A stretch of 64,000 nucleotides of DNA, taken from the NCBI GenBank assembly GCA_030038605.1, contig JASHSU010000152.1, positions 285 to 64,284 of the forward strand, read 5' to 3'. The notes beneath the pieces are model-generated. The model was not told the origin of the DNA. It did no database searches and worked only from the letters and a program-made list of their open reading frames with translations. Each line of letters opens with the position of its first letter. Position 1 is the stretch's first letter. The DNA comes from Thermoplasmata archaeon (GTDB lineage: Archaea > Thermoplasmatota > Thermoplasmata > Lutacidiplasmatales > UBA184). The translations under genes were made by a program, and so were the position numbers. Below are positions 35,947-62,163 of the stretch, piece by piece.

Positions 35947-36831
35947 GTGCCGGCGCGCCGGGCGACGCAGGTCCGCCTCATTTACGGCGATGCCCGCTCG
36001 ATGCCGACCGTCCCGGACCGGTCGGTCCACCTGGTCGTCACGTCCCCGCCGTACCCTATGATCCCTCAGTGGGACCACCTCTGGAAGGAACTGGGCGCCA
36101 CGGAGTACGCGGGCATGCACGACGTCCTCGAGCTCGCTTGGGCCGAGTGCCGCCGGGTCCTCGTGGACGGGGGCCTCCTGGCGGTCGTCATCGGCGATGC
36201 CCTGCGCTCCGACCGGTCCGGCTTCGCCCTGTGGCCGAACCACGCCGAGACCCTGGTCCGCGTCGCACGACAGGGGCTCCGACCCCTGCCGTACATTCTC
36301 TGGAAAAAGCCGACCAACAAACCGAACGCGTTCCTGGGGAGCGGCTTCCTTCCTCCCAACGCCTACGTCACGCTGGACTGCGAGTACATCCTGCTGTTCC
36401 GGAACGGCCGCCTGCGCCGCTTCCCGCCGCACGACCCGGCCCGGTCGGCCAGCCGGTTCACGCGGGACGAACGCGACCACTGGTTCAGCCAGGTCTGGGA
36501 GGACGTCCGGGGAGCACCCCAGCGGCGCGGCTCAGGCCGGTCGGGCGCCTTTCCGGCGGAGATCCCGCGTCGGCTCATCCGCATGTTCTCGGTGATCGGG
36601 GACACGGTCCTCGACCCGTTCGCCGGCACGGGGACGACCGTGCGGACGGCATGGGAGCTCGGCCGCAGCGCGGTCGGCGTGGAGATCGACCGTGCGGTCT
36701 ACGACGACCTGGTCCGAACGTCGTGGCGACTCGGGCCGTCGCCCGGACGGGCCGACGGCGTCAGGGGTCCGGCGCGACGGTCCGGCGCGGGTCGGTCGCC
36801 GGGGTCGGCGGCCGTTCGGTCCGGTGCGTGA
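35947..36831 (+). CDS. Beta-class DNA methyltransferase, probably N4-cytosine (SPPY motif)
   Basis: Motif IV VVTSPPYPM precedes motif I DPFAGTGTT, the order typical of the beta class. SPPY is typical of N4mC enzymes. A TATA-like GCTATTAACGG lies at ~35918. Confidence 0.7.
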   Translation: MPARRATQVRLIYGDARSMPTVPDRSVHLVVTSPPYPMIPQWDHLWKELGATEYAGMHDVLELAWAECRRVLVDGGLLAVVIGDALRSDRSGFALWPNHAETLVRVARQGLRPLPYILWKKPTNKPNAFLGSGFLPPNAYVTLDCEYILLFRNGRLRRFPPHDPARSASRFTRDERDHWFSQVWEDVRGAPQRRGSGRSGAFPAEIPRRLIRMFSVIGDTVLDPFAGTGTTVRTAWELGRSAVGVEIDRAVYDDLVRTSWRLGPSPGRADGVRGPARRSGAGRSPGSAAVRSGA

Positions 36832-37270
36832 GCTCCTCGTCGATCGCGGTCCGAAGGTACCGGAGGGCCGAGTCGCCGAGCCGGTCCATGTGCAGGAGGA
36901 GATAGTGGAGGTAGATCCGTTCCGGACGGTGGAGCGGACTCATCGAGGGTACCGCCGTGGGCGTCGCGTGCCGCGCGAGGGTCTCCTGATGGTGCTCGTA
37001 CCGCCGCCCGTGGACCTCGCGACCCGTCGGGCCGACCAGGGGCGGAGAGAATCGGTCGACCGGGTCGTACGGAGGGTCGGTCGCGGTGCCCGCGGTCGGG
37101 CGAGGCCCGGGGGATCGCGGCGCGAGGCGCCCGGCGAGGTACGGGTGGACGGGCTTCTCCGGATCCTGGAGGTCCTCGACCGGCCGGCCGGCGACGTCCT
37201 CCACGATCGTCTTGAGGCTCCAGCTCGTGCGCCGACGAGCGGGCCCTTCGGCCGTTGCTTCCGCGGCCAC
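36761..37270 (-). CDS. Possible small protein downstream of the ATPase (doubtful)
   Basis: An ORF 25 nt downstream of the ATPase stop. The sequence is partly Pro/Arg/Thr-rich, and its C-terminal 60 aa (MSPLHRPERIYLHYLLLHMDRLGDSALRYLRTAIDEELTH...) overlaps the 3' end of the MTase on the opposite strand. Confidence 0.2.
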   Translation of the reverse strand: MAAEATAEGPARRRTSWSLKTIVEDVAGRPVEDLQDPEKPVHPYLAGRLAPRSPGPRPTAGTATDPPYDPVDRFSPPLVGPTGREVHGRRYEHHQETLARHATPTAVPSMSPLHRPERIYLHYLLLHMDRLGDSALRYLRTAIDEELTHRTERPPTPATDPRRTVAPDP

Positions 37271-37294: not shown

Positions 37295-38962
37295 TCATAA
37301 ACCATCCTCTGGACCCGAACCGGCCGGACGGACCGCCAGAGCGCTGCTCAGAAACTCGTACTCCGGCGTGGATGCCACGAGAGCCAGCGGGAGGTGGAGT
37401 TCCCCGACCCGCCACAGCGACTCCGAGTACCCGACCGCTCGCGGCAATCTCGCCCGAGGCAGCCAGGCCGCTTCGGCGGCCGTGAGGCCGAAGAAGGTCC
37501 GCGCTGCCTCGGAGACCTCGCCCAGATGGAGAAACCCGGTGGCGTACAGATTCCGAAGGGTGGACCGACCGCTGGGCGTGGTCAGGAAGTCGTCCGGGTT
37601 CTGGCTGAGCAGGAGAAGGCCGGCGCGGAAATGGCGGATGTGGCGGACCGTCCGGTCCAGAAACTCCGCGGCCGCGGGGTGGCGCGCCAGAAGGTGGGCT
37701 TCGTCCAGCAGGACCAGGGTCGGTCCTCCGTGGTCCCGAATTCTCCCGTACACCCAGTCGAGCAAGTACGTGAGGTGGAACCCCAGGTGCTCGTCCGGGA
37801 CGCCCGACAGGTCGAAACAGAGCGGGCTCGCGTCGGTCCGCACCGTCGTCGGGCCGTTCGCCCCCGCCAACGAGCCCGACCGGAACACGTCGAGCAGCAC
37901 CCGCAATCGGTCGGACGACCCCCCACCCGGTGGGAGGGCCGCCATCAGGTCGTCGAACGTCGGGACGGCGGGCCCGTCCTCGTACAGGCGCCGAACGGCC
38001 GCATCGAGGACCGCCCCCTCCTCGTCCCGGAGGGAGGGGTAGAGGGCCCGCAACGCCGTCACGACCCGGGCCGACTTCTCGACGCGGTCGCCGGAGGTGG
38101 TCACCGGGTCGAGGGGGTTGACCCGACCCGCGGTGGGATCGGCCAACCGGAGGACCCGTCCCCCCATCCGCTCGACGAGGGAACCGAACTCCCCCAACGG
38201 GTCGAGGACGACGAGGTCGAGGTCCGGCGTCGTCCACCGGGTACGGAGGGCGAACAGGGCCGCGGCGAACGATTTTCCGGAGCCCGTGGTGCCGAACAGC
38301 CCCCAGGAATGGCTGGCGTGGTCCCATCGGTTCAGGAACACAGGGCTCGCGTCGGCCAGGGCGAGGCCGATCAAGATCCCGTTCGGTTCCAGCAGGGACT
38401 CGTCGCCGAACGGAAAGAAGGCGGCCACGGCGTCGGTGGGTAGGGTGTGCCAGAAGCTTCGAGGCCGAGATTCGGATCCGTCGAACTCCGGAGGCCGAAC
38501 GGCGTCCGACACCTCGTACGTCGGGACCCGAGGACGGAAACCGAGGGACGTGAGTCGGTCCGCGAGCCGCGAGCGGGCGCGGGCCACGCGAGCCCGTCCG
38601 GCGGTGCGCGCCTCGAACACGATGCCGACCCTCCACAACTCCTGGACCCTTCGCGCGACGGCCCGGGCGAGGTCGTGTGCCGACTCCTGCTCCGCTTCCA
38701 GTCGGGACGTCTCCGCGCCGGGCGCGGGCGCGGTCATCTCGGCCGCCGCCACCGTCCGGGCTCGCTCGAGCAACTCAACGGCCCGGTCGGTCGGCACCGG
38801 AAGGAGCTGCAGCACGAGTTCCACGGGCTCGGTCGTCGGGAGGACCTTCTCCAGGAATCCGAACGCGACCTCCGACGGGAGTCGTTCGACCAGCAACGGG
38901 GCCCGGCACCCCGCACCGCGGACTTGGAGGGTCGGTTCGACCCGGATCTCTCGGTCGGTCAC
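37295..38962 (-). CDS. VirB4/TrbE-like (HerA-FtsK superfamily, CedB/TedB-like) DNA-transfer ATPase
   Basis: GTG start at 38962 preceded by GGAGGAGAGGA. Walker A FGTTGSGKS, Walker B LVLLDEAHLL and an SQNPDD sensor-like motif. About 555 aa. Confidence 0.65.
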   Translation of the reverse strand: MTDREIRVEPTLQVRGAGCRAPLLVERLPSEVAFGFLEKVLPTTEPVELVLQLLPVPTDRAVELLERARTVAAAEMTAPAPGAETSRLEAEQESAHDLARAVARRVQELWRVGIVFEARTAGRARVARARSRLADRLTSLGFRPRVPTYEVSDAVRPPEFDGSESRPRSFWHTLPTDAVAAFFPFGDESLLEPNGILIGLALADASPVFLNRWDHASHSWGLFGTTGSGKSFAAALFALRTRWTTPDLDLVVLDPLGEFGSLVERMGGRVLRLADPTAGRVNPLDPVTTSGDRVEKSARVVTALRALYPSLRDEEGAVLDAAVRRLYEDGPAVPTFDDLMAALPPGGGSSDRLRVLLDVFRSGSLAGANGPTTVRTDASPLCFDLSGVPDEHLGFHLTYLLDWVYGRIRDHGGPTLVLLDEAHLLARHPAAAEFLDRTVRHIRHFRAGLLLLSQNPDDFLTTPSGRSTLRNLYATGFLHLGEVSEAARTFFGLTAAEAAWLPRARLPRAVGYSESLWRVGELHLPLALVASTPEYEFLSSALAVRPAGSGPEDGL

Positions 38963-39306
38963 TCCTCTCCTCCACGGGCCCCGCCCCTCTCCGCGAAGGC
39001 GAGGGGCAAAGTGCAGGCCCCCAGGATGGCTCCTCTCCAGACGTCGATCGGCGCGGCCCGAGCGAAGAAGACCACTGCCCCCAACGCGAGAGCGCCGAGG
39101 GCACCGACCGCCGACCGGGTCATCCTGGCCGTGGCTCCACCGTGTCGGGAACGGGCGGCCAGCCAACCCACCAAGGCCAGGACGGCGAGCGTCGCGGTCA
39201 GATCGGCGAGCGCCGGGTCGAGGACGGAGAGGAGGCCGCTCAGAAAGCCCCCTCCGGACGTCCACCGCAGGACGCTGAACCCCCCGAAGAGCTCGCCCGC
39301 GGTCAT
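38959..39306 (-). CDS. Small 3-TM membrane protein (VirB3-like candidate)
   Basis: 115 aa with three hydrophobic helices. ATG at 39306. Start and stop overlap both neighbours. Confidence 0.45.
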   Translation of the reverse strand: MTAGELFGGFSVLRWTSGGGFLSGLLSVLDPALADLTATLAVLALVGWLAARSRHGGATARMTRSAVGALGALALGAVVFFARAAPIDVWRGAILGACTLPLAFAERGGARGGEE

Positions 39307-40082
39307 GGATCCGGCGGGGTGAGGTTCCAGCCCGCGGCGGAGACGGCGGCCCCGAGCGCCCGCCCCTCGAGCACGGTAGGGCCCACGGCCAGGGTCGCCA
39401 AGCCGTCCGCGAGGGCCCTCGCCCGCTCGCGGACCCGTCGCCCGCCCTCGGCGGTCGCGTTCTCCGAGAGGAGGAAAAGGTCGACGCGCCGAGCCCGTCG
39501 CCGGAGGCACAACACCCGCACCAGCTCCGTGTACCCCGCCCGGGCCGGCGCGAGCGACGGCGCGCCGTCGGCCGTGCGGGGGAGCATCGGCGCCGCGTCG
39601 ACGGGCACGGAGTAGGCCCGGAGGACCAGTGCTCCGGACACGCCCCGAAGCACGTCACGGAACCGGTCGAAGAGGCCGGCCAGGTCGTCGGGCGGCCGAT
39701 AGGCGAGCGGCACCCCGTCGGTGCGTACGGCCGCCAGATAGCGACCGTCGCTCCGACGGGCGATCGGCCCTTGAACCCGCGGCACCGCGCGGGGGCTCAC
39801 GCCGACCCCCGGCCGAAGGCGGATCCACCGAAACCGTACCCAGCGCACCATCCGTTCGTCCGCGCTCTCTCCGTCCACTCGGCCGACCGCGACGGCGAAG
39901 CCCACGATCGGAAAGGGAAGCCAGAATCCCAGCGGCAGCCACGTCGCGAGTACGGCACCCGCGGCCGCCCAGCAGAGGAACTTGAGCGCGTCCCGCACGC
40001 TGGGGAAGGGCCCGAGTCGCATCCGTCGGTCGACGCGCTCCGGCAGGTAGACCACCGGGGCGCCTTCGGCGGGATCCGGCAT
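39303..40082 (-). CDS. Membrane-anchored protein (N-terminal TM hairpin plus ~190-aa soluble domain)
   Basis: TM segments FLCWAAAGAVLATWLPLGFWLPFPIVGFAVAV. The stop overlaps the downstream start. Confidence 0.45.
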   Translation of the reverse strand: MPDPAEGAPVVYLPERVDRRMRLGPFPSVRDALKFLCWAAAGAVLATWLPLGFWLPFPIVGFAVAVGRVDGESADERMVRWVRFRWIRLRPGVGVSPRAVPRVQGPIARRSDGRYLAAVRTDGVPLAYRPPDDLAGLFDRFRDVLRGVSGALVLRAYSVPVDAAPMLPRTADGAPSLAPARAGYTELVRVLCLRRRARRVDLFLLSENATAEGGRRVRERARALADGLATLAVGPTVLEGRALGAAVSAAGWNLTPPDP

Positions 40083-40083
40083 C

Positions 40084-41214
40084 TCACCGGCCGACTCCGG
40101 ACCTCATCGGGGGGAAATCGGACGTGCGGGGGCCCCCGGCGGAGCGAACATGTCGAACCAGATGCGTCGCGGCGTGCCCGAGAGCCGTCCCGATCGCGAG
40201 CGGGGCCGACACGGGAACCGCCGACGAACCCGCCGCTCGGACGGTGGCGGCGACCGACGGCCCTGCTCCACCTCGGGTGGGCAAGGCGGAGGTCGGCCCA
40301 CTGGCGACCGAGGCGGCCGCCGACGAGGGAGCCGACAGGCCGCGTTGAACGCCGGCGGACGCGATGCCGCCCCCGGACGGGAACCCGAAGGCGGCCAGAT
40401 GGGTACCGGCAACGGAGATGAGATACGGCGAGGCGAGGGCGGCTCCGAGGTATCCGAGCAGCAACACCGGGCTGGTCGTATCCACGGCCAGCTGCAGGGG
40501 AACGACCATGACGCAGGGCATGAACGCCAGTTCCCCGAACAGGAGCCAGGCCCGTCGGGGGATGGTCGAAAGGGGCTGCAGAGGCCACAGCAGCGAGAAC
40601 AAGGGAAGCAGGACCAGGAGGACCGAGAGCAGGGCGTCCCGCACTCCGACCGCGAGGATCAGCCCGATGACCGCGAGAAACTCGGCGACCGAGAGGACCA
40701 GAGCCAAGGCCCCGTTATCCCAGGAGAACGACAGCTCGCCCCAGCCGGCGAGGTTCGACCAGTGTTGCCAGGCCCCTCCGTTCCACCCGGACAGCACCGG
40801 GTAGAGTGAGCCCGCCACGTCCAGGAGCCCGGTTGAAATCGGGACGGTGAAATTCGCGACCAGCACCGCCACCACCAGTCGGGGAAGAAGGGCATCCAGC
40901 CGTGCGCCCCACCGTTCGACCGTGGCCCGAACGAGGTAGAGCAGCCCGACCCCCGCGGCGACGAGCGCGATGACGGGGTCCACCGCGCTCGTAACCACGT
41001 CGGTCGAGAACTGGGTCGCGGTGGACAGGAAGTCACCGTTCGACTCCAGACCCGCCCGAACCGGAGGAAAGAGGGCGGACGGCTGGAGGAGCGGCACGAG
41101 CAGATTGTCGTACGTGGGCCCGGTGACCGCCGCGACGATCGCCGTGAACACCGAAAACAGCGCGAAGAGGATCGCCTGGACGATGGCCGACCAATCGATG
41201 GAGAGGGCGAACAA
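40084..41214 (-). CDS. Polytopic membrane protein (>=6 TM) with Ser/Ala/Gly-rich C-terminal tail. Candidate VirB6/TrbL/CedA-like channel component.
   Basis: Hydropathy read manually. It lies 10 nt after the pilin-like gene. Confidence 0.45.
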   Translation of the reverse strand: MFALSIDWSAIVQAILFALFSVFTAIVAAVTGPTYDNLLVPLLQPSALFPPVRAGLESNGDFLSTATQFSTDVVTSAVDPVIALVAAGVGLLYLVRATVERWGARLDALLPRLVVAVLVANFTVPISTGLLDVAGSLYPVLSGWNGGAWQHWSNLAGWGELSFSWDNGALALVLSVAEFLAVIGLILAVGVRDALLSVLLVLLPLFSLLWPLQPLSTIPRRAWLLFGELAFMPCVMVVPLQLAVDTTSPVLLLGYLGAALASPYLISVAGTHLAAFGFPSGGGIASAGVQRGLSAPSSAAASVASGPTSALPTRGGAGPSVAATVRAAGSSAVPVSAPLAIGTALGHAATHLVRHVRSAGGPRTSDFPPMRSGVGR

Positions 41215-41224
41215 CGACCCCTCC

Positions 41225-41617
41225 TCACGTCCCCGTCAACACCCAGTGCGCGAGACCCCAGAACAGCCCGGTGATCGCGGCGACGAACAGCAGGGTCCCG
41301 ATGAGAGCATCCCGCGCCCGGTCCTTGGCCTGGACCTTCTTGGTGATGTCGTTGGAGAACCAGCTGAGGGCGACGCGGGCCCAGACGAGGGACAGCAGCC
41401 CCGAGCCGGCCAGTCCGAGCAGCTCGACCAGGCGATTCACGGAGGCCGTGAAGTTGTCCACGGCCGGTGACTGCGCCACCCTGCCCCCCTCGAACTCCAC
41501 CGGGGCGACTCCGGTGGCAGAGGCCGGCGGGACCGCGGGGGGATGGACCGAGGAGATCGACCCGGCCGTCGCGATGGCGACGACCAGGAGGCAGCCGAGC
41601 CAGAGTCCGACGTTCAT
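41225..41617 (-). CDS. VirB2/TrbC-like pilin candidate (signal peptide plus two hydrophobic helices)
   Basis: MNVGLWLGCLLVVAIATAGSISS signal peptide, then helix 1 (LVELLGLAGSGLLSLVWARVALSWF), a charged loop (SNDITKKVQAKDRARD), then helix 2 (ALIGTLLFVAAITGLFWGLAHWVL). ATG at 41617 overlaps the upstream stop (ATGA). Confidence 0.45.
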   Translation of the reverse strand: MNVGLWLGCLLVVAIATAGSISSVHPPAVPPASATGVAPVEFEGGRVAQSPAVDNFTASVNRLVELLGLAGSGLLSLVWARVALSWFSNDITKKVQAKDRARDALIGTLLFVAAITGLFWGLAHWVLTGT

Positions 41618-43800
41618 TCGAGCTCCCACGCCAGGATTTCGCCGCCGTCTGGTTCTCGCTCGGATCGTACGCGCCCTTCCGCGATCAGGCGGTCGAGCGT
41701 CTGCCGCGCCCGCTCGAGCGGCACACCGCGCTCCTCCGCCAGCAGCTCGACGGTCACCCGGTCCGCACCGTCCGCCGGGCGCAGGAGGTCCTCGAGCACT
41801 CGCTCCGCGTCGGGTCCCGGTGCGGGCACGGAAGGCGCGCGTCGCCGACGTAAGATCCAGACGGAACCGGCCGCGACCGCGACCAGCGCGGCCACGAGGG
41901 CCGCCAACCCCAGCGCGTCGGCCGAGGGAGCGCTCGGCGGCGGAGGACCCGGTGGCGAAGGCGCCGCGGCCGGGAGGTCGAGCGTAAGGTTGGCCTGGGC
42001 GTCCACTCCTCGCGCGTCGCGCAGCGCCACGGCGAGCGTCAGGTTTCCTGATCCGGTCACCCTCGCGGACGCGGCGGTGGCCCCTGCGCCGAAGCGCGCG
42101 CTCCACTCCGTGGCGTTGGAGACGTTGACCCAGCCCTGGTAGGGAGGTACCCCTCCGGTCGGGTCGAGGGTGAAGTTCACCCACGAAGGGCTCGCCCCGG
42201 CCACGCTGACATTCGAGATACGAACGGTCGGGGCCGCGGGAAGAGCCACGGACTCCGTGACGTCGGTCCAGGCACCGGCGTCGTCGAAAACGCCGAGCGT
42301 GACATTGACGACCCCTTCCTCGCTGCGCGACGCACTCCAGGACCAGGACGTGACCCCCGTTAGAGCCGTCATCGACGACGAGTTGGCGAAGCCCACGCCG
42401 GGACTGAGTGTCCACAGGTACGGTGCCGATCCACCCGAGACGGAACCCCGGAGGCCCACGCCGGACGATGCAGCGCCGATCCACACGGAGGCCTGAGCCT
42501 CCAGTGCCAGCTTCGGGGCCACGGCCAAAGTAAGGTTGGCCGCCCGCGCCTCCACGCCGAGGCCATCGGTCACCGAACCGGTCCAGACCGCGAGACCGTT
42601 CGCCGACGGAGTCCATGGGAGGAGGAGATCCCCGTCGACCGGTTCGGGACCGAGGATGCGCCCTACGCCGTCCGGTCCAGTCAGCGTAATCCAGAAGGGG
42701 GCAACCCCCCCGGTCACGGTCACACGCAGGACCGATGCGACCCCGACGTCCGTGACCGGTGGGGTCGCCCGGAGTCCCAATGCGAGCGCACCCGCCACCG
42801 GCTCCAGGTACGTCGATCGAAAGGTCTGGGAGGCCACTAGGCCCTCGACGACGACCGACACGGGGAACGGTCCCGAGAGACTCGGCGTGCAGACAACGTC
42901 CGAGACGTTGCCCGAGCCACCCGAGTCGACCGACGAGCCGCACGCGACGATGTGGTGGGAGGGGCCCACGGGGTGGACGACGGTCGTCGCAAAGCTCACC
43001 GGCTGACCGGCCTCGGCCTCCGGTACCGAGGCAGCGATCCAGGCTGTGGTACCGTTGGAGACCGCCACCGGCTCGGGGGCGACCGCCTCCGTCGTCGCAC
43101 CCTGCTGGTCCGTGACCTGAACCGAGGGGATGTACACTCCGGCCCCGTAGGTGTGGAGGAACCGGACCGTACCCGGCGCGCCTACCGTCTGCTCACCAAA
43201 GGTTCCGTCGCCCCAACTCACATTGAGTTCATACGGGGCCAGACCGCCCTCGAGGGTGGTCGTCAACGTAACCCAGTCCGAAACGACCTGCGACCCCGGG
43301 CGGACGGAGAGGTTGGTCAGCGTGAGGGGTGCGTAGTCGGTCCCGCGGGCGAGCGCGATCTGGTCTTCCGTAGTGTTCCCGGAGGAACAATCGATGGCGA
43401 CCGCCGCACGGGCGCCCACTTCGTACGGCCCCGACTCGAGCGGGGAGAGTGCCACCGTCGTCGACGACGCATTCGGGTCGTCGAAAGTGCCGGCGACCGA
43501 GCTGTTCGCGGGCCAGAACCAACGCGTCCACACGGGGTCGAGCGTGCAATTGGCCGGCGCCGAGCCCCAGCGGGCACTCGCCGTGACGGTCATCGCGCTC
43601 ACGTTCGCCCCAGTCAGGTCGACGGAGAGGGCGACGGGGACACCCGTCGAGCTCGAACCGGAGAACTGCGGGACGGCGGACAGTGGGTGGCTGGGGGCCG
43701 TCGGAGAAACGGACGGTAGAACACTCAGCAGGGCCAAGAACCCCACCAGCCACCAAGCACGTCGGACGTACTCTCCCTCCGGGCCTCGGATCGTCGTCAT
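41614..43800 (-). CDS. Secreted PKD/Ig-like-repeat surface protein with C-terminal TM anchor and a cytoplasmic helix-turn-helix-like tail
   Basis: Signal peptide starts at the internal ATG at 43800 (MTTIRGPEGEYVRRAWWLVGFLALLSVLPSVS). PKD hallmark VSWGDGTFGE and many N-x-S/T sequons. TM anchor LGLAALVAALVAVAAGSVWIL. A cytoplasmic ~60-aa tail (ERVLEDLL...RARQTLDRLIAEGRV) follows. Confidence 0.55.
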   Translation of the reverse strand: MTTIRGPEGEYVRRAWWLVGFLALLSVLPSVSPTAPSHPLSAVPQFSGSSSTGVPVALSVDLTGANVSAMTVTASARWGSAPANCTLDPVWTRWFWPANSSVAGTFDDPNASSTTVALSPLESGPYEVGARAAVAIDCSSGNTTEDQIALARGTDYAPLTLTNLSVRPGSQVVSDWVTLTTTLEGGLAPYELNVSWGDGTFGEQTVGAPGTVRFLHTYGAGVYIPSVQVTDQQGATTEAVAPEPVAVSNGTTAWIAASVPEAEAGQPVSFATTVVHPVGPSHHIVACGSSVDSGGSGNVSDVVCTPSLSGPFPVSVVVEGLVASQTFRSTYLEPVAGALALGLRATPPVTDVGVASVLRVTVTGGVAPFWITLTGPDGVGRILGPEPVDGDLLLPWTPSANGLAVWTGSVTDGLGVEARAANLTLAVAPKLALEAQASVWIGAASSGVGLRGSVSGGSAPYLWTLSPGVGFANSSSMTALTGVTSWSWSASRSEEGVVNVTLGVFDDAGAWTDVTESVALPAAPTVRISNVSVAGASPSWVNFTLDPTGGVPPYQGWVNVSNATEWSARFGAGATAASARVTGSGNLTLAVALRDARGVDAQANLTLDLPAAAPSPPGPPPPSAPSADALGLAALVAALVAVAAGSVWILRRRRAPSVPAPGPDAERVLEDLLRPADGADRVTVELLAEERGVPLERARQTLDRLIAEGRVRSEREPDGGEILAWELE

Positions 43801-43882: not shown

Positions 43883-44554
43883 CTACCGACGGGGCGCGGG
43901 GCGGACGAACAGCGCGACGTGGTCACGAGCGAATGGCGCGAGCGGGATCTCGGAAGTCACGCGAAGTCCGGCCGACTCGATCTCGTCCCGCGCCTCCCGA
44001 ACGATCGCACCCGCCGGGCGGGATTGCGTGACCGAGCGGATCTTCAGCATGAAGAGGCCCCGTCCGCCGGGCCCCAGGGCCACCCGGGCATTCTCGGCAA
44101 AGATCGCGGCCTGGTTCCGCTGCGCGACGTCCTGGTAGAGCAAGTCTACCAGCCCTGTATCCGCCCGGTACCGCTCGGGCAGCTGGGCGTCGGCGAGGAT
44201 CGGGAAGATGTTGGCGCGACGACGGGCGAGCGCCAGGAGCGGGGCGAACGCCGTCGGGCTCTTCTCGACCACGAACAGGTCCGCCTCCGGCACCACGTCC
44301 GACAGATGGCTCACGGTCGTCCCGTGCGCGCCTCCGAGGTAGAGGACCGACCCCACGCCCGCGAACAGATCGTTCGGGGCTCCGCGCGTCAGGACCGCCG
44401 CGAGCTTCGACCGGAACGGGTCCCACATCCGGTACTCGGTCGCGCCGTCACGGCGCAATCGCTCCCCGTAGACCCGGTCCCCCGGTGGGCCCCGATTGAC
44501 CGTGTAGAGGTCCCGACCGTCGCGATAGACGCCCGCCCAGGCCGTCGCCTCCAC
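43883..44554 (-). CDS. flpA: Fibrillarin-like rRNA/tRNA 2'-O-methyltransferase
   Basis: VYGERL...EYRMWDPFRSKLAA...VLYLGGAHGTTVSHLSDVV...NIFPILADAQLPERY...DLLYQDVAQ are the fibrillarin SAM-MTase blocks. Confidence 0.85.
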   Translation of the reverse strand: MEATAWAGVYRDGRDLYTVNRGPPGDRVYGERLRRDGATEYRMWDPFRSKLAAVLTRGAPNDLFAGVGSVLYLGGAHGTTVSHLSDVVPEADLFVVEKSPTAFAPLLALARRRANIFPILADAQLPERYRADTGLVDLLYQDVAQRNQAAIFAENARVALGPGGRGLFMLKIRSVTQSRPAGAIVREARDEIESAGLRVTSEIPLAPFARDHVALFVRPAPRR

Positions 44555-51136: not shown

Positions 51137-54100
51137 TCACGCGGACGGGGGCGCCGGAGGGGTTGCGGCCGGGTCGGTCGTCCCCCCCGACGTCGGCGGC
51201 GTGTACTCCTGCACGGGTCCCTTGCGTTGCGGGGGGGTCCGGTGGGTCGCGACCCACACCAGTGCGACGACGACGACGATGACCGCCAGGAGCCCGACCG
51301 TCTCCAGGACCGGGACGCCGAGGATCTCGTTCGCGGAGTTCGTGTTCGCCTTGGAGGTGAATTGGACGGTGACGAGGACCGACGCGCCGTTGACCGTGAC
51401 CGAGCCGCCCGAAGGACTCACCGTGTATCCGGAGACCGAACCGACCGAGAAGGTGTAGGCCCGGTTCGCCTCCTCGAAGACGATCGAGGTTCCGGTGCCA
51501 GCGACGGTGGACCCGTTGAGCGTCACGGACCAGCTGGTCCCTCCGGGCAGGCCGACTTCCGTGAACGTGACGGAGTAGATGGGCCTCGACCACGCGAGCG
51601 AGACCGTGACGTCATGACCCGCGACCAGGACCGTGCCGGTCGCGTTGGGCGTGACCCATCCTTCGGGACCGTTGACCACGTACGTCCAGTTCCCGTTGGG
51701 CAGGGAGAGGCTCAGGGAACTCACGTGGGCGGTGTCGGTCTGGTTGCCGACCGCCACGGACCAGGCCGAGCCCGCGGGCAGGCCGGTCTCGTTGAACGTG
51801 ACCGTGTAGGTGGTCAGCGAGCAGGTGAGCGCGACACCGACCGCCGCGCCGTTGACCGTGAGAGTACCCGACGCCGGCACGCAACCCCAGTTGGCCGGAG
51901 GGCTGACCGCGTAGCGGTAATGCCCGTCGAGTTCCGAGAAATTCAGCGTGGTCGTAGTGCTCGAGAGCGGCGTGCCGTTGACGGTCACCGACCAGGTCGC
52001 GCCGGTCGCGAGCCCGGTCTCGGTGAAGGTCACCACGTAGGCGGACGTCCAAACGATCGTCGTGAGGAGATCCCCCCCGTCCACGTACTCGGTGCCCATC
52101 CTCGGCGAGGCGGCCAGTCCGGTCAGCGGGCTCACCGTGAACGGATAGCTTCCGTTCGGGACAAAGAACTCGATCGGGCCTCCGGTTGCATTCCATCCCA
52201 GCGTGCCGTTGAGCACGACCGACCAGTTCTGACCGGCTGTCGCGTTGTCCGCCGCCGTAAAGGTGACCGTGTAGAGTTGGAGGGCCCAGGCGATGGCGAC
52301 GTTCGTGGCCGCTGCATCGACGGTCACCGAGCCGTTCCGGGGTGCCGCGTACCAGCCTCCCAGGTACCCGACGACGAAGTGGTACGTTCCGTTCTGTACC
52401 TGGAACGTGATCGCGCCTCCGACCGAGTAGTTGAACAGCGGCTCCCCGAGGTTGCCCCCCGTGAGGAGGACGCTCCAGTTCTTGTCCGCCGGCAGTCCGG
52501 TCGGGGCGAAGCGGAGCGTGTAGGTGAACGGGGCGAACTGGACGGACTCCGAGACCGACCCGCCCGCCACGTCCACCGTTCCGGTACCATTCTCCGACGC
52601 CGTAAAGTTCCGGATGCTCCCGACCTGGTACGTGTACGACCCATCCAGCACGGTGAAGACGATCGAGGAACCGGCCTTCGCGCTGCCGTTCGCCCAGAGC
52701 GCGGGGTCGCTGACCCCATGCAAGGTGACCGCCCACGTGAGACCGAGGTTCAGGCCACTTTCGGAGAACGTCACCGCATAGAGCGTCCCCACCCAGTAGA
52801 CCGAGTACGACTCGTTCTTCCCCTGCACGCTAAAGGTCACGCTGCTCGGATTGGGAGTCCACCCGAGTACGGCTCCGTAGGTGGCGACATAGCGCGAGCC
52901 GTTGGGGAGCCAGACCGTCAAGTTGGCCGTCATCCCACTCACTTGCGTGCTGTAGGAGCTGTTGGCGACGTCGTCGACGCTCACACTCCACGCTTCGCCG
53001 CTCGTCAAGTTGGTCTCGCGGAAGGTGATGGCGTACCGCGCGACCGTGAAGTCGATCGGGACGGTCCGGCCCGGACCGGCGACCGTGAACGACCCGGACT
53101 GCGTGGTGACGAATCCCGGGACAATACCCACCGTATACGAGTAGGTCCCGTTGGGGAGGAAGAAGCCGACATCGGGCGTCGTGGCCCAGTTGCTGGACTC
53201 GTTGGCCACGGAGACGGTCCAGTTCGTTCCCGAGGTCAAGTTGGTCTCGACGAACGTAACGTTGTACCCGAACCCGAAGGTCAGGGTGATGTTGAGGGGT
53301 CCCCCCGCGACCGTGAAAACCCCCATCCTCGGGAACGCCACGTAGCTGCGGGCCGCGGCGGCGATCAGGAACGTGTAGGTCCCGTTGTAGATTCGGATCA
53401 CATCGGTCGTCGAGTAGCTCGTCTGACCCTCGCGGGACGTGAAGTTGACCCACCACTGACCTCCCTTCGGAAGTCCTGACTCGATGAACGTGACGGAGTA
53501 GAACACTCGGTTGAAGTAGGGCGATACGACCTGGCCGGTCCCGTTCACGGTCAGGCAACCGCTGGCGGGGGTGGCGACCCACCCGTCCGTGGCGGACACG
53601 GCGAAGCAGTAGGTGCCGTTCGGCAACCAGAACGTGAGGTAGGTTCCCAGGTGGGTGGTCAGGGTCTTCCCGTCGATCGTGGCCGACCAGTTACCGGTCC
53701 AGGAGAGGTTCTTCAGGGGCAGGTTCGATTCCAGGAACGTCACGTTGTAGACGTCCTGGGTCCAGTCGATCCGAACGGTGGTGGCGCCACTGACCGCGAC
53801 TGAGCTCGCGTAGGGTGACGTCGTCCAGCCCGCCACCGGGCCGATCGTGTATCGATAGGAACCCGTCGACTCGTTGTAGCTCAGATTGCCTGTTCCCCGC
53901 TGAGGCGTCCCGTTCAGGTCGACCGACCACGGGAGGGAACTGGGCAGACCTACCGGTTCGAAGATCACGGGATTCGGGGAGTCGGTCCAACTGATGTTGA
54001 CCGCGAGCGGGGCACCGCTGACCGAGAGGCTTCCGGAGGGTGCGGACGGAGTTTCTAGGGATGAGGAATTCACCGCGTAGCTGAAGGTCCCATTGGGGAC

Positions 54101-56164
54101 CGCGAAGGCCAGCACGTAGCCGGTCGTGTTCTGAGTTTGACCGTCGAACGTCACCGACCAATTCGTGCCGAGGGGAAGTCCGCCCTCGGTGAAAGTCACG
54201 GGGTACGTTGCCTGCGACCAGAGAATGGTCACAGACACCGACGTGCCGTTGACCGTGACGTTCCCCATCGTCGGCACAGCCGACCACCCCGGCGCGGCGC
54301 CGACCGCGTAGGGGTAGGTACCGTTTGCCAACGGAACGCTGAGGGAACCGGCTGTCGAACGGGTCGTCGTGCCGCCGATGGTCACGGACCACGGAGTGCC
54401 GACGGAAAGATTCAGGGCCGTGAAATTGACCGGATAAGTTACGGCCGTCCAGGGGACCTCGACCGACGCGTTGTACCCGTGGACCGTCACCGAGCCGGCG
54501 GGCGGTGGGGCGCGCCAGCCCGCCACTGGACCGACCGTGTAGGAGTACGTGCCGTTGGGCTCCAGGAAGGAGATCGTGGACCCCGTCGAGCTCTGCAGGA
54601 TCCCGCCCAAGGTCACACTCCAGGTCGTTCCGGCGGGCAGCCCGGACTCGCAGAACGTGGCCGAGTACGTGGAGCCGCCCACTCCGGACGTATCGGGGCG
54701 GCACACCGAGACCAGTACTACCGCCTGCGGTGGGAGGCTCCAACTGGTCGTCGAGCCGAACCCGCTGCTCGAGGTGAACGTTCCGTTGGTCGAGTTGGTC
54801 GCCTCCCACGTGGCGTAGGAGCCGTAGCCCGGGAAGAGAGGGCCCCCCAGATCGAGAGTGACAGTGTTCGTCGTCCCGGTGTTGACCGCGAGAACCGAGA
54901 CGGTGGTGTTCTCGTCCGACTCCGAAGCCGCAACGTACACCCCGCTGGCCGCTTTCGTCACGCTCGTGTTCAGGAGCGTCGGACCGAAGTGCGAGAGGAC
55001 CTGCGAGAACAGGGAGTCGACCGGACGGGCCTGCCCCGTCGCGTTGAACAGCGAGCCATTGTAGGCGGACTCTAGGTTGTAGAGTTCCGCGTTGTAGACG
55101 CTGCTGGTCATCATGATGATGTCCTCCGCTGCGACGTAAGGCACCTGAGGGTAGGTCTGCATGTACGGCTGCCAGGCCCCCGTCGTACCGGTCCCGCTCC
55201 CGTACTCATCCACAAAGAGTGGGATGTGGCAGCTGGAGCACGTCGCGTTGATCGCCTGCTCGTCGGCTACGAGGCGGGCTCGGAGCCCGTTCGTACCGCC
55301 CAGCGTACCGTAGAATTGGGCTACCGTTCCTGTGCCCTTGTTCTCGGCGGGGTACTCGTGGACGGCGACCCCCGCCAACCGGGGACCATTCAGGGCCACC
55401 GTCGCGTTGATCCAGGGTACATCCGAGGCGCTCCCCGCCCCGACGCCGGGGAGTCCGAGGATCCGGATCGACGAGTCAACCCCGCGCATGGCGGTGATGT
55501 ACTGACCCACGACCGCCGCGTACTGGGTCGCATTGACATGCGACGCGTCGGTCCCCTTCCAATTCGGCCACGAGATGTTGAAGTGCGTCCATCCGAACGG
55601 TTCGTCGCCGATCTCCCAGTACGCGGGGTGGAAGTGGAGGACATTTTCGGTGTAGCTGACCTCGTACGCGGCGAAACCGGGCTCGTCGATCTCGCCGGGG
55701 ACCGACAGGATCGCTTGGCAGTGGATGGAATTACACCAGTTGACGAAGTCGGATTCGTTCGAGCCTTCGGGCGTCGCATACCCGAAGGTCCACACGCTGC
55801 CGTTGACCATGTTGAAGGAATCGGAGAGCTTGCCCGCTGGATACTCTACCCAATCGAGGGAGGTGCCGTTGAGCTGAGTCGCGGCGCTGCCGTTCGGTGT
55901 CGATGCATCGACCCCGACGCCCCAGAACGACGAGAGGTTCGCCTCGGTTCGGTTGAGCACCGTGACCGCCTCGGTCGGCGCGGCGGGCGGGGCCGGTCGA
56001 TGACTCGTCGGCAGGGACGAGGGCGTGACGAGGGCCGGAGTGCTCGGGGCGGCCGGAGAGGTGCCGGGAATCTGCGGCACGAGAAGCATCGTAAGCACCA
56101 GGGCGAGCAGACCGAACTGCAGGGCCGAGGGCCGGACGAGGCCCCGGAACGATAGGTTACCCAT
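51137..56164 (-). CDS. Giant membrane-anchored surface protein: signal peptide, an N-terminal domain resembling clan GH-A glycoside hydrolases, ~14 tandem ~95-aa repeats, and a C-terminal TM anchor
   Basis: AYWEIGDEPFGW (clan GH-A acid/base-like) and VDEYGSG (nucleophile-like) motifs. Repeats of the consensus Y.VTF.E.GLP.GT.WSV.LNG......T..F..PNGTY.Y.V....GY....SGSV.V.GA.V...V.F. C-terminal LLAVIVVVVALVWVA followed by a short tail. Very many N-x-S/T sequons. Confidence 0.6.
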   Translation of the reverse strand: MGNLSFRGLVRPSALQFGLLALVLTMLLVPQIPGTSPAAPSTPALVTPSSLPTSHRPAPPAAPTEAVTVLNRTEANLSSFWGVGVDASTPNGSAATQLNGTSLDWVEYPAGKLSDSFNMVNGSVWTFGYATPEGSNESDFVNWCNSIHCQAILSVPGEIDEPGFAAYEVSYTENVLHFHPAYWEIGDEPFGWTHFNISWPNWKGTDASHVNATQYAAVVGQYITAMRGVDSSIRILGLPGVGAGSASDVPWINATVALNGPRLAGVAVHEYPAENKGTGTVAQFYGTLGGTNGLRARLVADEQAINATCSSCHIPLFVDEYGSGTGTTGAWQPYMQTYPQVPYVAAEDIIMMTSSVYNAELYNLESAYNGSLFNATGQARPVDSLFSQVLSHFGPTLLNTSVTKAASGVYVAASESDENTTVSVLAVNTGTTNTVTLDLGGPLFPGYGSYATWEATNSTNGTFTSSSGFGSTTSWSLPPQAVVLVSVCRPDTSGVGGSTYSATFCESGLPAGTTWSVTLGGILQSSTGSTISFLEPNGTYSYTVGPVAGWRAPPPAGSVTVHGYNASVEVPWTAVTYPVNFTALNLSVGTPWSVTIGGTTTRSTAGSLSVPLANGTYPYAVGAAPGWSAVPTMGNVTVNGTSVSVTILWSQATYPVTFTEGGLPLGTNWSVTFDGQTQNTTGYVLAFAVPNGTFSYAVNSSSLETPSAPSGSLSVSGAPLAVNISWTDSPNPVIFEPVGLPSSLPWSVDLNGTPQRGTGNLSYNESTGSYRYTIGPVAGWTTSPYASSVAVSGATTVRIDWTQDVYNVTFLESNLPLKNLSWTGNWSATIDGKTLTTHLGTYLTFWLPNGTYCFAVSATDGWVATPASGCLTVNGTGQVVSPYFNRVFYSVTFIESGLPKGGQWWVNFTSREGQTSYSTTDVIRIYNGTYTFLIAAAARSYVAFPRMGVFTVAGGPLNITLTFGFGYNVTFVETNLTSGTNWTVSVANESSNWATTPDVGFFLPNGTYSYTVGIVPGFVTTQSGSFTVAGPGRTVPIDFTVARYAITFRETNLTSGEAWSVSVDDVANSSYSTQVSGMTANLTVWLPNGSRYVATYGAVLGWTPNPSSVTFSVQGKNESYSVYWVGTLYAVTFSESGLNLGLTWAVTLHGVSDPALWANGSAKAGSSIVFTVLDGSYTYQVGSIRNFTASENGTGTVDVAGGSVSESVQFAPFTYTLRFAPTGLPADKNWSVLLTGGNLGEPLFNYSVGGAITFQVQNGTYHFVVGYLGGWYAAPRNGSVTVDAAATNVAIAWALQLYTVTFTAADNATAGQNWSVVLNGTLGWNATGGPIEFFVPNGSYPFTVSPLTGLAASPRMGTEYVDGGDLLTTIVWTSAYVVTFTETGLATGATWSVTVNGTPLSSTTTTLNFSELDGHYRYAVSPPANWGCVPASGTLTVNGAAVGVALTCSLTTYTVTFNETGLPAGSAWSVAVGNQTDTAHVSSLSLSLPNGNWTYVVNGPEGWVTPNATGTVLVAGHDVTVSLAWSRPIYSVTFTEVGLPGGTSWSVTLNGSTVAGTGTSIVFEEANRAYTFSVGSVSGYTVSPSGGSVTVNGASVLVTVQFTSKANTNSANEILGVPVLETVGLLAVIVVVVALVWVATHRTPPQRKGPVQEYTPPTSGGTTDPAATPPAPPSA

Positions 56165-56346
56165 GGGGTGCAGTCAAACCGGAATTCTCCCCCCTCGTTA
56201 AACTGACGGTCGCACGGTCCATCTCGGACTCCGCGGGAACCCGAGACGTGCGCGGGCGTCGCGCCGCCTAACGAAGGCTCGCCGAGGTGCTGGTCGAGAA
56301 CGGCGAATTTCGCCAGCGTGAAGTAGTCGCGCTCGGTCGCGCACGC

Positions 56347-62061: not shown

Positions 62062-62163
62062 TGTCGGAGGGGGGATTTGAACCCCCGGCCCCAGGATCTC
62101 TCCCGGGACGCGGTCCGCGTCCCGCTATGAGTCCCGTGCTCTACCGGGCTGAGCCACTCCGAC
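62062..62163 (-). tRNA. tRNA with anticodon CAU (Met or Ile2). It carries a ~16-nt intron in the anticodon loop and an unusually long (17-nt) variable region, which may indicate a second intron.
   Basis: Manual fold of the reverse complement: acceptor GTCGGAG/CTCCGAC, D arm GCTC-AGCCCGGTA-GAGC, anticodon stem CGGGA...TCCCG with loop CTCATA+G interrupted by GCGGGACGCGGACCGC, T arm GGGGG-TTCAAAT-CCCCC, discriminator A. Confidence 0.55.

Follow-up and report, generated by a model that had tools for sequence, protein, structure and literature searches.

Within a 64,000-nucleotide stretch of a contig from a Thermoplasmata archaeon (GenBank assembly GCA_030038605.1, contig JASHSU010000152.1; hereafter the window), seven co-oriented genes follow one another with overlapping or abutting ends, and the second of them is a short frame for which a conjugative-type pilin resembling VirB2 and CedA1 had been proposed from the DNA alone (the original prediction). 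The frame translates exactly to the 130-amino-acid (aa) protein described there, the NCBI call likewise gives 130 aa, and an identical protein (P0001) is in the database. This protein is currently annotated as hypothetical, and Pfam at default thresholds misses it. From its anatomy, its relatives and its surroundings we consider it fairly probable that the gene encodes a VirB2-type pilin precursor (T4SS_pilin superfamily; T4SS, type IV secretion system) of a minimal T4SS-like apparatus, chromosomally fixed and vertically inherited in a soil and peat lineage of Thermoplasmata that includes the metagenome-assembled genomes UBA184 and UBA61.

The window is archaeal DNA of about 70% GC, in which spurious open reading frames (ORFs) are plentiful, and the reality of the gene was therefore tested by conservation. 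Database searches returned 835 relatives at E ≤ 0.01, and relatives also occur in 136 species-level genomes. Where codons of the mature domain differ among 80 loci, 69% do so synonymously, indicating purifying selection. Because of the number and spread of these relatives and the predominance of synonymous differences, the ORF is a genuine gene and not a chance frame of GC-rich DNA. Its ATG (41617-41615) shares bases with the TGA of the upstream gene (41616-41614, in the frame of a 770-aa ORF), so that the coordinates confirm the ATGA overlap with a surface-protein gene that had been noted earlier; the stop codon lies at 41227-41225. We prefer this ATG as the start, with a Shine-Dalgarno-like GGGAG motif 5 nt on its 5′ side and in agreement with the NCBI call. 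An in-frame GTG four codons before it (41627-41629, minus strand) would yield a protein of 134 aa by adding MGAR (MGARMNV...). Starting at GTG 41629 is a possible alternative: it would supply a basic n-region, as found in 107 of 114 close homologues, where the ATG leaves the window copy without one, and it would give a 16-nt overlap with the upstream gene, equal to that in loci L001-L003.

Conservation was read from an alignment of 29 close homologues (A1), which also served as the AlphaFold2 input. All 43 invariant columns fall within residues 55-129, and the boundary is sharp: residues 1-51 vary in both sequence and length, and residues 52-130 are nearly frozen. The AlphaFold2 model (mean predicted local distance difference test score, pLDDT, 72.9) places helices at residues 3-18, 51-92 and 98-128, disorder at 19-50 and a loop at 93-97, with pLDDT of 80-87 across most of the hairpin and lower values in the loop. 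The linker has no conserved columns, a pLDDT of 53-57 and no secondary structure. Both the model and hydropathy thus bear out the two hydrophobic helices and short charged loop of the original prediction, and the fold is the helical hairpin that it had implied. Its uniform mature region of about 105 aa fared differently: helices and loop stand, and since conservation begins only at about residue 52, the functional module is a 79-aa hairpin behind a non-conserved linker (Table 1).

The N-terminus looks like a Sec signal cut by signal peptidase I (SPase I) rather than a class III signal, in line with the cleavable-looking signal peptide of the original prediction, and cleavage is predicted. A hydrophobic N-terminal stretch occurs in 110 of 114 close homologues, with lysine or arginine before it in 107 and a small-x-small motif after it in 104; the region varies in sequence, yet it is retained as a feature. 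Candidate SPase I sites in the window protein lie after A18 (A-T-A) or S22. A type IV pilin or archaellin-like protein, carrying a class III signal peptide and built by a type IV filament machine, would share the presence of an N-terminal hydrophobic segment and nothing else, and we see next to no chance that the gene encodes one. That segment is the least conserved part of the protein, the [KR]-G/A class III cleavage motif before a conserved hydrophobic helix is absent from all relatives searched (0 of 219), the conserved part is a two-helix hairpin rather than a helix followed by a β-domain, and Pfam and NCBIfam scans of the cluster found no type IV filament ATPase or platform gene. The missing motif, the variable N-terminus and the hairpin fold effectively refute the class III prepilin reading.

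At the outer end of helix 1 stands a sequon whose N55 and F56 are invariant in A1 and whose third position is always T or S. It is present in all 114 close homologues and mostly missing from the listed Thermoplasmatales forms that lack a signal peptide, a distribution that fits an external, Sec-exposed N-terminus, and N55 would be a plausible site of N-glycosylation. Between the helices, the loop SNDITKKVQAKDRARD is nearly invariant and net basic, with the core pattern KK.QAK.RAR and the modelled turn within it. VirB2-type propilins sit in the membrane with the corresponding loop cytoplasmic and both termini outside. By this analogy and the positive-inside rule, the window protein in its membrane form should have the loop on the cytoplasmic side and both ends outside; in a pilus, if one is built, the loop would line the lumen.

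The link to T4SS pilins comes from the family rather than from the window protein by itself. The full-length protein has no Pfam match at E ≤ 1 and no NCBIfam match; the mature domain alone has a sole Pfam match, to PF18895 (T4SS_pilin; E 0.037, aligned 2-63 to 2-64 of 71), one of the models that annotate VirB2-like T4SS pilins in Patescibacteria (PMC12102498). Run against 1.8 billion representative proteins, the A1 profile returned only 33 clusters, and its matches include P0126 (3.7e-30), P0138 (2.3e-9) and P0140 (1.7e-8). P0126, which is 44% identical to the window protein, matches PF18895 at 1e-4 (22.7 bits), and three relatives exceed the gathering score of 26.6 bits: P0138 (3.4e-8, 33.9 bits), P0140 (2.3e-6, 28.0 bits) and a 177-aa pilin paralogue in locus L005 (2.1e-7, 31.3 bits). 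P0126, P0138 and P0140 align over positions 3-71 of the 71 in the model, and the L005 paralogue over essentially its full length. Among 26 aligned family members, PF18895 is matched by 17, as the top family, with weaker matches to T4SS_CagC in three and to TrbC in one (E 0.056). As a control, p115, the operon's other small protein with two transmembrane (TM) segments, has no PF18895 match. By these sequence comparisons the window protein appears to be a transitive member of PF18895, through demonstrable homologues, rather than a direct member at the cut-off, and the curated models overlook this pilin subfamily.

The family extends to cultured organisms. A low-GC-relative profile retrieved 98 Thermoplasmatales proteins, including some from cultured Ferroplasma, and about half of them carry a precomputed PF18895 annotation. 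Homologous clusters are carried by the culturable Ferroplasma acidiphilum/acidarmanus and Cuniculiplasma divulgatum. The Ferroplasma locus (L087/L088) is reduced to three genes: its pilin is 85 aa long and lacks a signal peptide, its polytopic protein has 307 aa, and its VirB4 (9162-11204 in L087), of 680 aa, bears an N-terminal TM hairpin. The same trio of pilin, polytopic protein and VirB4 occurs in L005/L006. Thermoplasmatales members (P0153-P0245) take two forms, one of about 114 aa with signal peptide and sequon and one of 85-97 aa without signal peptide and usually without sequon; the two mirror, inside one homologous family, the split between TedC (processed) and CedA1 (unprocessed), the pilins of the archaeal Ted and Ced systems. 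In the low-GC relative, three or four tandem pilin-domain genes stand upstream of VirB4 (L005 6451-10203, L006 2374-6126). One encodes a plain 177-aa pilin; the others, of about 330-400 aa, have a signal peptide, a β-rich domain of about 200 aa, a Gly/Trp-rich linker with GGGSWWGGG repeats and a C-terminal pilin hairpin, and may be pilins displaying a globular domain, or minor or tip pilins.

The operon also encodes candidate partners for a T4SS-type pilin. The fourth gene after that for the pilin, about 2.3 kb further along the operon, encodes a VirB4-like ATPase, which matches the NCBIfam models conju_CD1110 (6.8e-36), VirB4_plasma (8.8e-26), VirB4_CagE (1.3e-12) and CedD (3.1e-9) and the Pfam family DUF87 (8.1e-8). 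VirB4 lies near the pilin gene in 68 of 86 loci, and the remaining loci are truncated contigs. The polytopic gene, with a TTG start at 41214 behind a GGAGG motif and 11 nt past the pilin stop codon, is directly downstream of the pilin gene in 85 of the 86 loci. The adjacency to a polytopic gene on which the original prediction relied is therefore secure, and the VirB6-like identity given to that gene is partly supported, by topology, by position and by precomputed PF19590 (TrbL_3) annotations on about 30% of its homologues (P0248-P0363) that hmmscan did not reproduce. Next in order, p259 may be a separately encoded VirB3-like or VirB4 N-terminal module. The p115 gene overlaps both of its neighbours, through its ATG with the stop of p259 and through its stop with the start of VirB4, and an equivalent 118-aa gene is called in L001-L003. 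Comparison with the Ferroplasma VirB4 suggests that a VirB3-like anchor is split off in the window lineage (p259/p115) and fused to VirB4 in Ferroplasma. Homologues of VirB5, VirB7-11 and VirD4 were not seen in the cluster.

Upstream, the surface protein combines a signal sequence with repeats that resemble immunoglobulin (Ig) and fibronectin type III (FnIII) domains and are rich in N-x-S/T sites. A single TM helix towards the C-terminus (residues 674-692 in the numbering of the 770-aa ORF) is followed by a cytoplasmic, winged-helix-like tail of about 75 aa, with weak Pfam matches to EutK_C (6e-4), DUF5817_CT and Rrf2. The layout, an adhesin outside and a DNA-binding-like part inside, is unusual. 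An NCBIfam match to PamR (FnIII-like, 9.1e-10) was rejected as a sign of a related pilus system and reflects only a common FnIII/Ig-like domain. The surface protein is the fastest-evolving product of the cluster and is short or missing in L082-L086. At the other end, whether the convergent methyltransferase belongs to the system is uncertain. An orphan DNA methyltransferase neighbours the cluster in both lineages, of differing families: N6_N4_Mtase, convergent with p169, in the window lineage and a D12-class enzyme in Ferroplasma (6342-7115 of L087, two genes upstream of the pilin). A functional link to the cluster, for example through marking DNA, is possible.

Table 1. Features of the candidate pilin gene, its cluster and other parts of the window. 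Positions are those of the window; identity is the median to the window protein (80 genomes for the mature pilin domain, 65 loci for p169).
Feature	Position	Strand	Description	Median identity
Candidate pilin gene	41225..41617	-	130 aa
Signal-peptide-like N-terminus, residues 1-23	41549..41617	-	h-region LWLGCLLVVAIATA, read from sequence
Linker, residues 24-51	41465..41548	-	Pro/Ala/Ser/Gly-rich, variable, predicted disordered
Conserved mature pilin-like domain, residues 52-130	41228..41464	-	two-helix hairpin, 79 aa	78%
Sequon N55-F56-T57	41447..41455	-	outer end of helix 1
Helix 1, residues 51-92	41342..41467	-	AlphaFold2; hydrophobic core LVELLGLAGSGLLSLVWARVALSWF; hydropathy segment 66-84
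Charged loop region, residues 88-103	41309..41356	-	SNDITKKVQAKDRARD; five basic and three acidic residues
Helix 2, residues 98-128	41234..41326	-	AlphaFold2; hydrophobic core ALIGTLLFVAAITGLFWGLAHWVL; hydropathy segment 101-119
Upstream surface protein	41614..43800	-	likely ATG 43800, 728 aa; mechanical ORF to 43926 (770 aa)	32% (least conserved of cluster)
Polytopic membrane protein, putative VirB6/TrbL/CedA/TedA-like channel	40084..41214	-	376 aa; at least 6 hydrophobic segments (hydropathy)	57%
p259	39303..40082	-	membrane-anchored, N-terminal hydrophobic hairpin; synteny conserved; no family match	41%
p115	38959..39306	-	small two-TM protein; no Pfam match	37%
VirB4-like ATPase	37295..38962	-	555 aa from GTG 38962; no TM segment	61%
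p169	36761..37270	-	last cluster gene; conserved soluble protein, no TM, no family match; 65 loci	59%
Convergent N6/N4 DNA methyltransferase	35947..36831	+	Pfam N6_N4_Mtase 8.5e-33; position conserved in 62 loci	68%
Fibrillarin	43883..44554	-	Pfam 1.1e-55	67%
1675-aa protein	51137..56164	-	only match NOMO1-like beta-sandwich domain
Thermopsin-family protease	56287..59346	+	1019 aa
tRNA	62062..62163	-	102 nt, 56.9 bits (Rfam); not reported by ARAGORN; probably an intron-containing archaeal tRNA

The cluster is a fixture of the chromosome, and its trio of pilin, polytopic protein and VirB4 forms a fixed core locus in at least 136 species of the soil and peat lineage. A locus search with A1 gave 80 loci, each from another species; the source genomes, UBA184 and UBA61 among them, all bear the label Thermoplasmata archaeon. 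On every contig that reaches far enough the genes run in one order: fibrillarin, surface protein, pilin, polytopic protein, p259, p115, VirB4, p169 and the convergent methylase. The pilin gene and its neighbours are thus kept in every locus of sufficient length, which answers the question of conservation in homologous loci that the original prediction had left to be checked. The flanks hold fibrillarin, YjgF-like, DUF885, orotidine monophosphate (OMP) decarboxylase/RraA, pseudouridine synthase, carbamoyl-phosphate synthase, gyrase A and PolB genes, and about 70 species-level genomes with visible flanks share the same chromosomal position, between fibrillarin and the methylase/OMP-decarboxylase gene. 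Contigs bearing the cluster reach 2.3 Mb, one complete chromosome carries it too, and its divergence tracks that of its housekeeping neighbours. Because of the identical order, the housekeeping flanks and this parallel divergence, the locus is a vertically inherited core feature and not a mobile element.

This placement bears on whether the cluster is part of an integrated conjugative element, in which the pilin would serve transfer of the element rather than a domesticated host function. In favour of such an element, the VirB4 is closest to conjugal-transfer ATPase models (conju_CD1110), and the absence of a relaxase proves little because archaeal relaxases are unknown (PMC3548315). The fixed position in about 70 species-level genomes and the divergence shared with housekeeping genes nevertheless make a conjugative element very unlikely; the scan of window genes turned up no integrase, relaxase or VirD4-like coupling protein, and neither a tRNA-adjacent boundary nor a compositional shift was found at the cluster. 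With its housekeeping flanks, and with no integrase or relaxase among the scanned genes, the locus looks instead like a domesticated minimal system of the Ced/Ted kind.

VirB2-family pilins carry a long cleaved leader and two hydrophobic helices joined by a basic loop, and work with VirB4 and VirB6-type partners. The window protein is like VirB2, TrbC and TraA (PF04956; T-pilus structures PDB 8CUE and 8EXH) in its predicted leader, its two-helix mature domain in the range of about 70-80 aa, its basic loop, its predicted topology with both termini out and its VirB4 and VirB6-type partners. It differs in having no significant sequence relationship to them (TrbC at E 0.056 in one of 26 members; hhalign below 1%) and in belonging to a monoderm or wall-less host with ether or tetraether lipids. 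With PF18895 pilins it shares a family whose members match the whole 71-position model and a VirB4 neighbour of the monoderm (FATA-like) kind; unlike those of Patescibacteria, it comes from an archaeal host, is encoded by a single-copy gene where pilin arrays are common, and has a long variable linker and a sequon.

Among archaeal systems, the closest parallel is Ted. TedC of Pyrobaculum calidifontis (Pcal_0765; Beltran et al. 2023) likewise carries a signal peptide of the Sec type, for which an SPase I site is predicted, then a disordered stretch (residues 23-37; PMC9905601), then a two-helix hydrophobic hairpin, and tedC lies directly upstream of the 7-TM TedA (PMC9905601), just as the window pilin gene lies directly upstream of its polytopic gene; in both, the chromosomal locus also encodes a VirB4-like ATPase. 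Like Ted, the window system is lineage-wide and vertically inherited, and the genes scanned include no relaxase. The window protein differs from TedC in the lack of sequence similarity detectable by PDB profile search (E ≤ 10), in its thermoplasmatotal host and in the invariant N-x-S/T sequon at the start of helix 1. The accessory genes differ as well: here they encode a large Ig-like surface protein, p259, p115 and p169, with a DNA methylase next door, and the ParA, Rad50 and HerA neighbours of Ted are missing. Ted pili have been observed, whereas the window system is known here from genes. CedA1 and CedA2 of Sulfolobales and Desulfurococcales are comparable small two-TM hairpins beside a polytopic CedA-like gene, with a VirB4-like ATPase, on the chromosome, and the 85-97-aa Thermoplasmatales relatives, such as Ferroplasma P0236, resemble CedA1 in having no signal peptide. 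The window protein is unlike CedA1 in its signal peptide and linker and in sequence. Similarity to CedA1 or TedC is not strictly a defining feature, because the Ced and Ted pilins lack it mutually (PMC9905601).

Several observations weigh against a VirB2-type pilin. The mature domain scores 14.5 bits against PF18895, short of the gathering score, and matches of hydrophobic hairpins can be compositional. Profile searches (A1, A2 and A3) of PDB chain sequences, a set expected to contain the deposited chains of CedA1 and TedC (8DFU and 8DFT), retrieved no solved pilin at E ≤ 10; the test is a weak one, since a phmmer search with VirB2 itself does not find any other solved pilin either. Comparison by hhalign with VirB2 of A. 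tumefaciens (8CUE sequence) gave a probability below 1%, and comparison of the pilin with the N-terminus of the VirB6-like protein gave 1.5% from low-diversity alignments (Neff 2.4), so that the homology reported between CedA1 and the CedA N-terminus has no counterpart here. For the polytopic partner, hmmscan on the current Pfam copy did not reproduce TrbL_3 in six homologues at E ≤ 10, finding instead a weak DUF7427 match (E about 0.006) at the C-terminus, and the AlphaFold2 model is unusable (pLDDT 51). The pilin gene is translationally coupled to a 728-aa protein and has no visible promoter of its own, which is odd for a subunit needed in thousands; a sigma-70 promoter and terminator scan is uninformative for an archaeon. 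The 78% identity of the mature domain, against 67% for fibrillarin, is unusual for an exposed filament subunit and would also suit a buried membrane subunit, and PF18895 pilins are themselves without demonstrated pilus formation (PMC12857230).

Three further comparisons were set aside or gave nothing. The top PDB profile match, an ABC permease at E 0.03-0.14, was judged spurious; the local hhalign match of RVALSWF to AIGISWM of VirB2 at the end of helix 1 was not significant; and Foldseek of the AlphaFold2 model against the PDB gave 0 hits at E ≤ 10, in a search by which helical hairpins are poorly served.

The sequence results could be taken to mean that this is a small membrane protein unrelated to pilins, such as a VirB3-like ATPase anchor, a holin-like protein, or one that chaperones or anchors the surface protein, with compositional PF18895 matches. 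The weak match of the window protein itself, the want of similarity to solved pilins and the overlap with the surface-protein gene all agree with this, and the C-terminal hairpin of some distant secreted relatives of about 300 aa can be read as a membrane anchor. We judge it improbable, given that PF18895 is consistently the top family, over the full model and above the cut-off in three relatives, and leaves p115 unmatched. VirB3-like traits (no signal peptide, fusion or adjacency to VirB4) better fit p259/p115 and the N-terminus of the Ferroplasma VirB4, and the hairpin gene persists both where the surface protein is short or absent (L082-L086) and in the three-gene Ferroplasma locus. The VirB2- and CedA1-like identity originally proposed is thus upheld by PF18895, in 17 of 26 members, and by the VirB4 of the operon; no similarity to solved VirB2, CedA1 or TedC was detected.

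A harder question is whether a true T4SS-pilin homologue builds an extended pilus here. It could instead remain in or just above the membrane, either as a short pseudopilus or as a ring that forms part of the translocation channel, a role suggested for CedA1/CedA2 of Sulfolobales, where Ced pili have never been seen and pseudo-pili were proposed (PMC11823120). Conservation above that of fibrillarin points the same way, as does a single-copy, translationally coupled gene with no sign of separate high expression, together with the unproven pili of PF18895 proteins. F-type pilins are highly conserved too. CedA1 of A. pernix and TedC of P. calidifontis, of the same architecture and context, form long pili (PMC9905601), and the conserved external sequon suggests a solvent-exposed surface. 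On balance we think a role without an extended pilus unlikely, while giving it more weight than any of the other alternatives; the high conservation, the coupling and the unproven PF18895 pili suit a pseudopilus or membrane-resident role equally well. The pilin mature domain outranks fibrillarin and every other gene of the neighbourhood in conservation.

For the pilin precursor that we favour, a course of assembly can be sketched. The protein would be inserted by Sec so that both ends lie outside and the basic loop reaches into the cytoplasm, cut by signal peptidase I and perhaps N-glycosylated at the N55-F-T sequon on the outer face. From its store in the membrane the VirB4 ATPase would later draw it out at the VirB6-like platform, and it would polymerise with membrane lipids into a hollow pilus or short pseudopilus, with the KKxQAKDRARD loop lining the lumen. 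If it works as Ced and Ted do (PMC9905601, PMC11823120), the apparatus would carry DNA from cell to cell within one species, and the fast-evolving Ig-like surface protein would provide partner recognition. Of these steps, we infer pilus formation and DNA transfer from the known systems.

Elsewhere in the window, the thermopsin-family protease gene adjoins that of the 1675-aa protein; both products are large secreted or surface proteins, and local GC is lower there (64-66%).

The kind of system is already known, a VirB2-like pilin in a minimal domesticated T4SS; what is new is its occurrence in this lineage. Only two archaeal systems of chromosomal DNA exchange derived from conjugation and using VirB2-like pili are documented: Ced, in Sulfolobales and Desulfurococcales, and Ted, in Thermoproteales. 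No euryarchaeal counterpart, from Thermoplasmata or elsewhere, appears in reviews up to the end of 2025, and for archaea the papers and reviews through 2025-2026 mention Ced, Ted and conjugative plasmids and nothing further. The sole prior trace that we found in Thermoplasmata is one sentence on a VirB4 cluster with membrane proteins in Cuniculiplasma (PMC5155288), besides automatic PF18895 tags. A more far-reaching view, which we offer tentatively and with more doubt than belief, is that Ced and Ted have a third, unnamed archaeal counterpart in chromosomal DNA exchange, the first outside Thermoproteota, and that this gene encodes its pilin. Such a system would be class-wide, from a seven-gene form in high-GC soil lineages to a three-gene form in wall-less acidophiles such as Ferroplasma, with a glycosylated, lipid-containing pilus, a surface protein setting mating specificity and a methylase marking self DNA, and it could be the missing mechanism of homologous recombination in Ferroplasma, whose natural populations recombine extensively (PMC2704941). 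The trio of pilin, polytopic protein and VirB4 offers a concrete gene set with which to ask how Thermoplasmata, including cultured Ferroplasma, exchange DNA and recombine, and, if the reading is true, it would bring a new pilus to structural study in organisms with tetraether membranes, which in Thermoplasmatales are wall-less.

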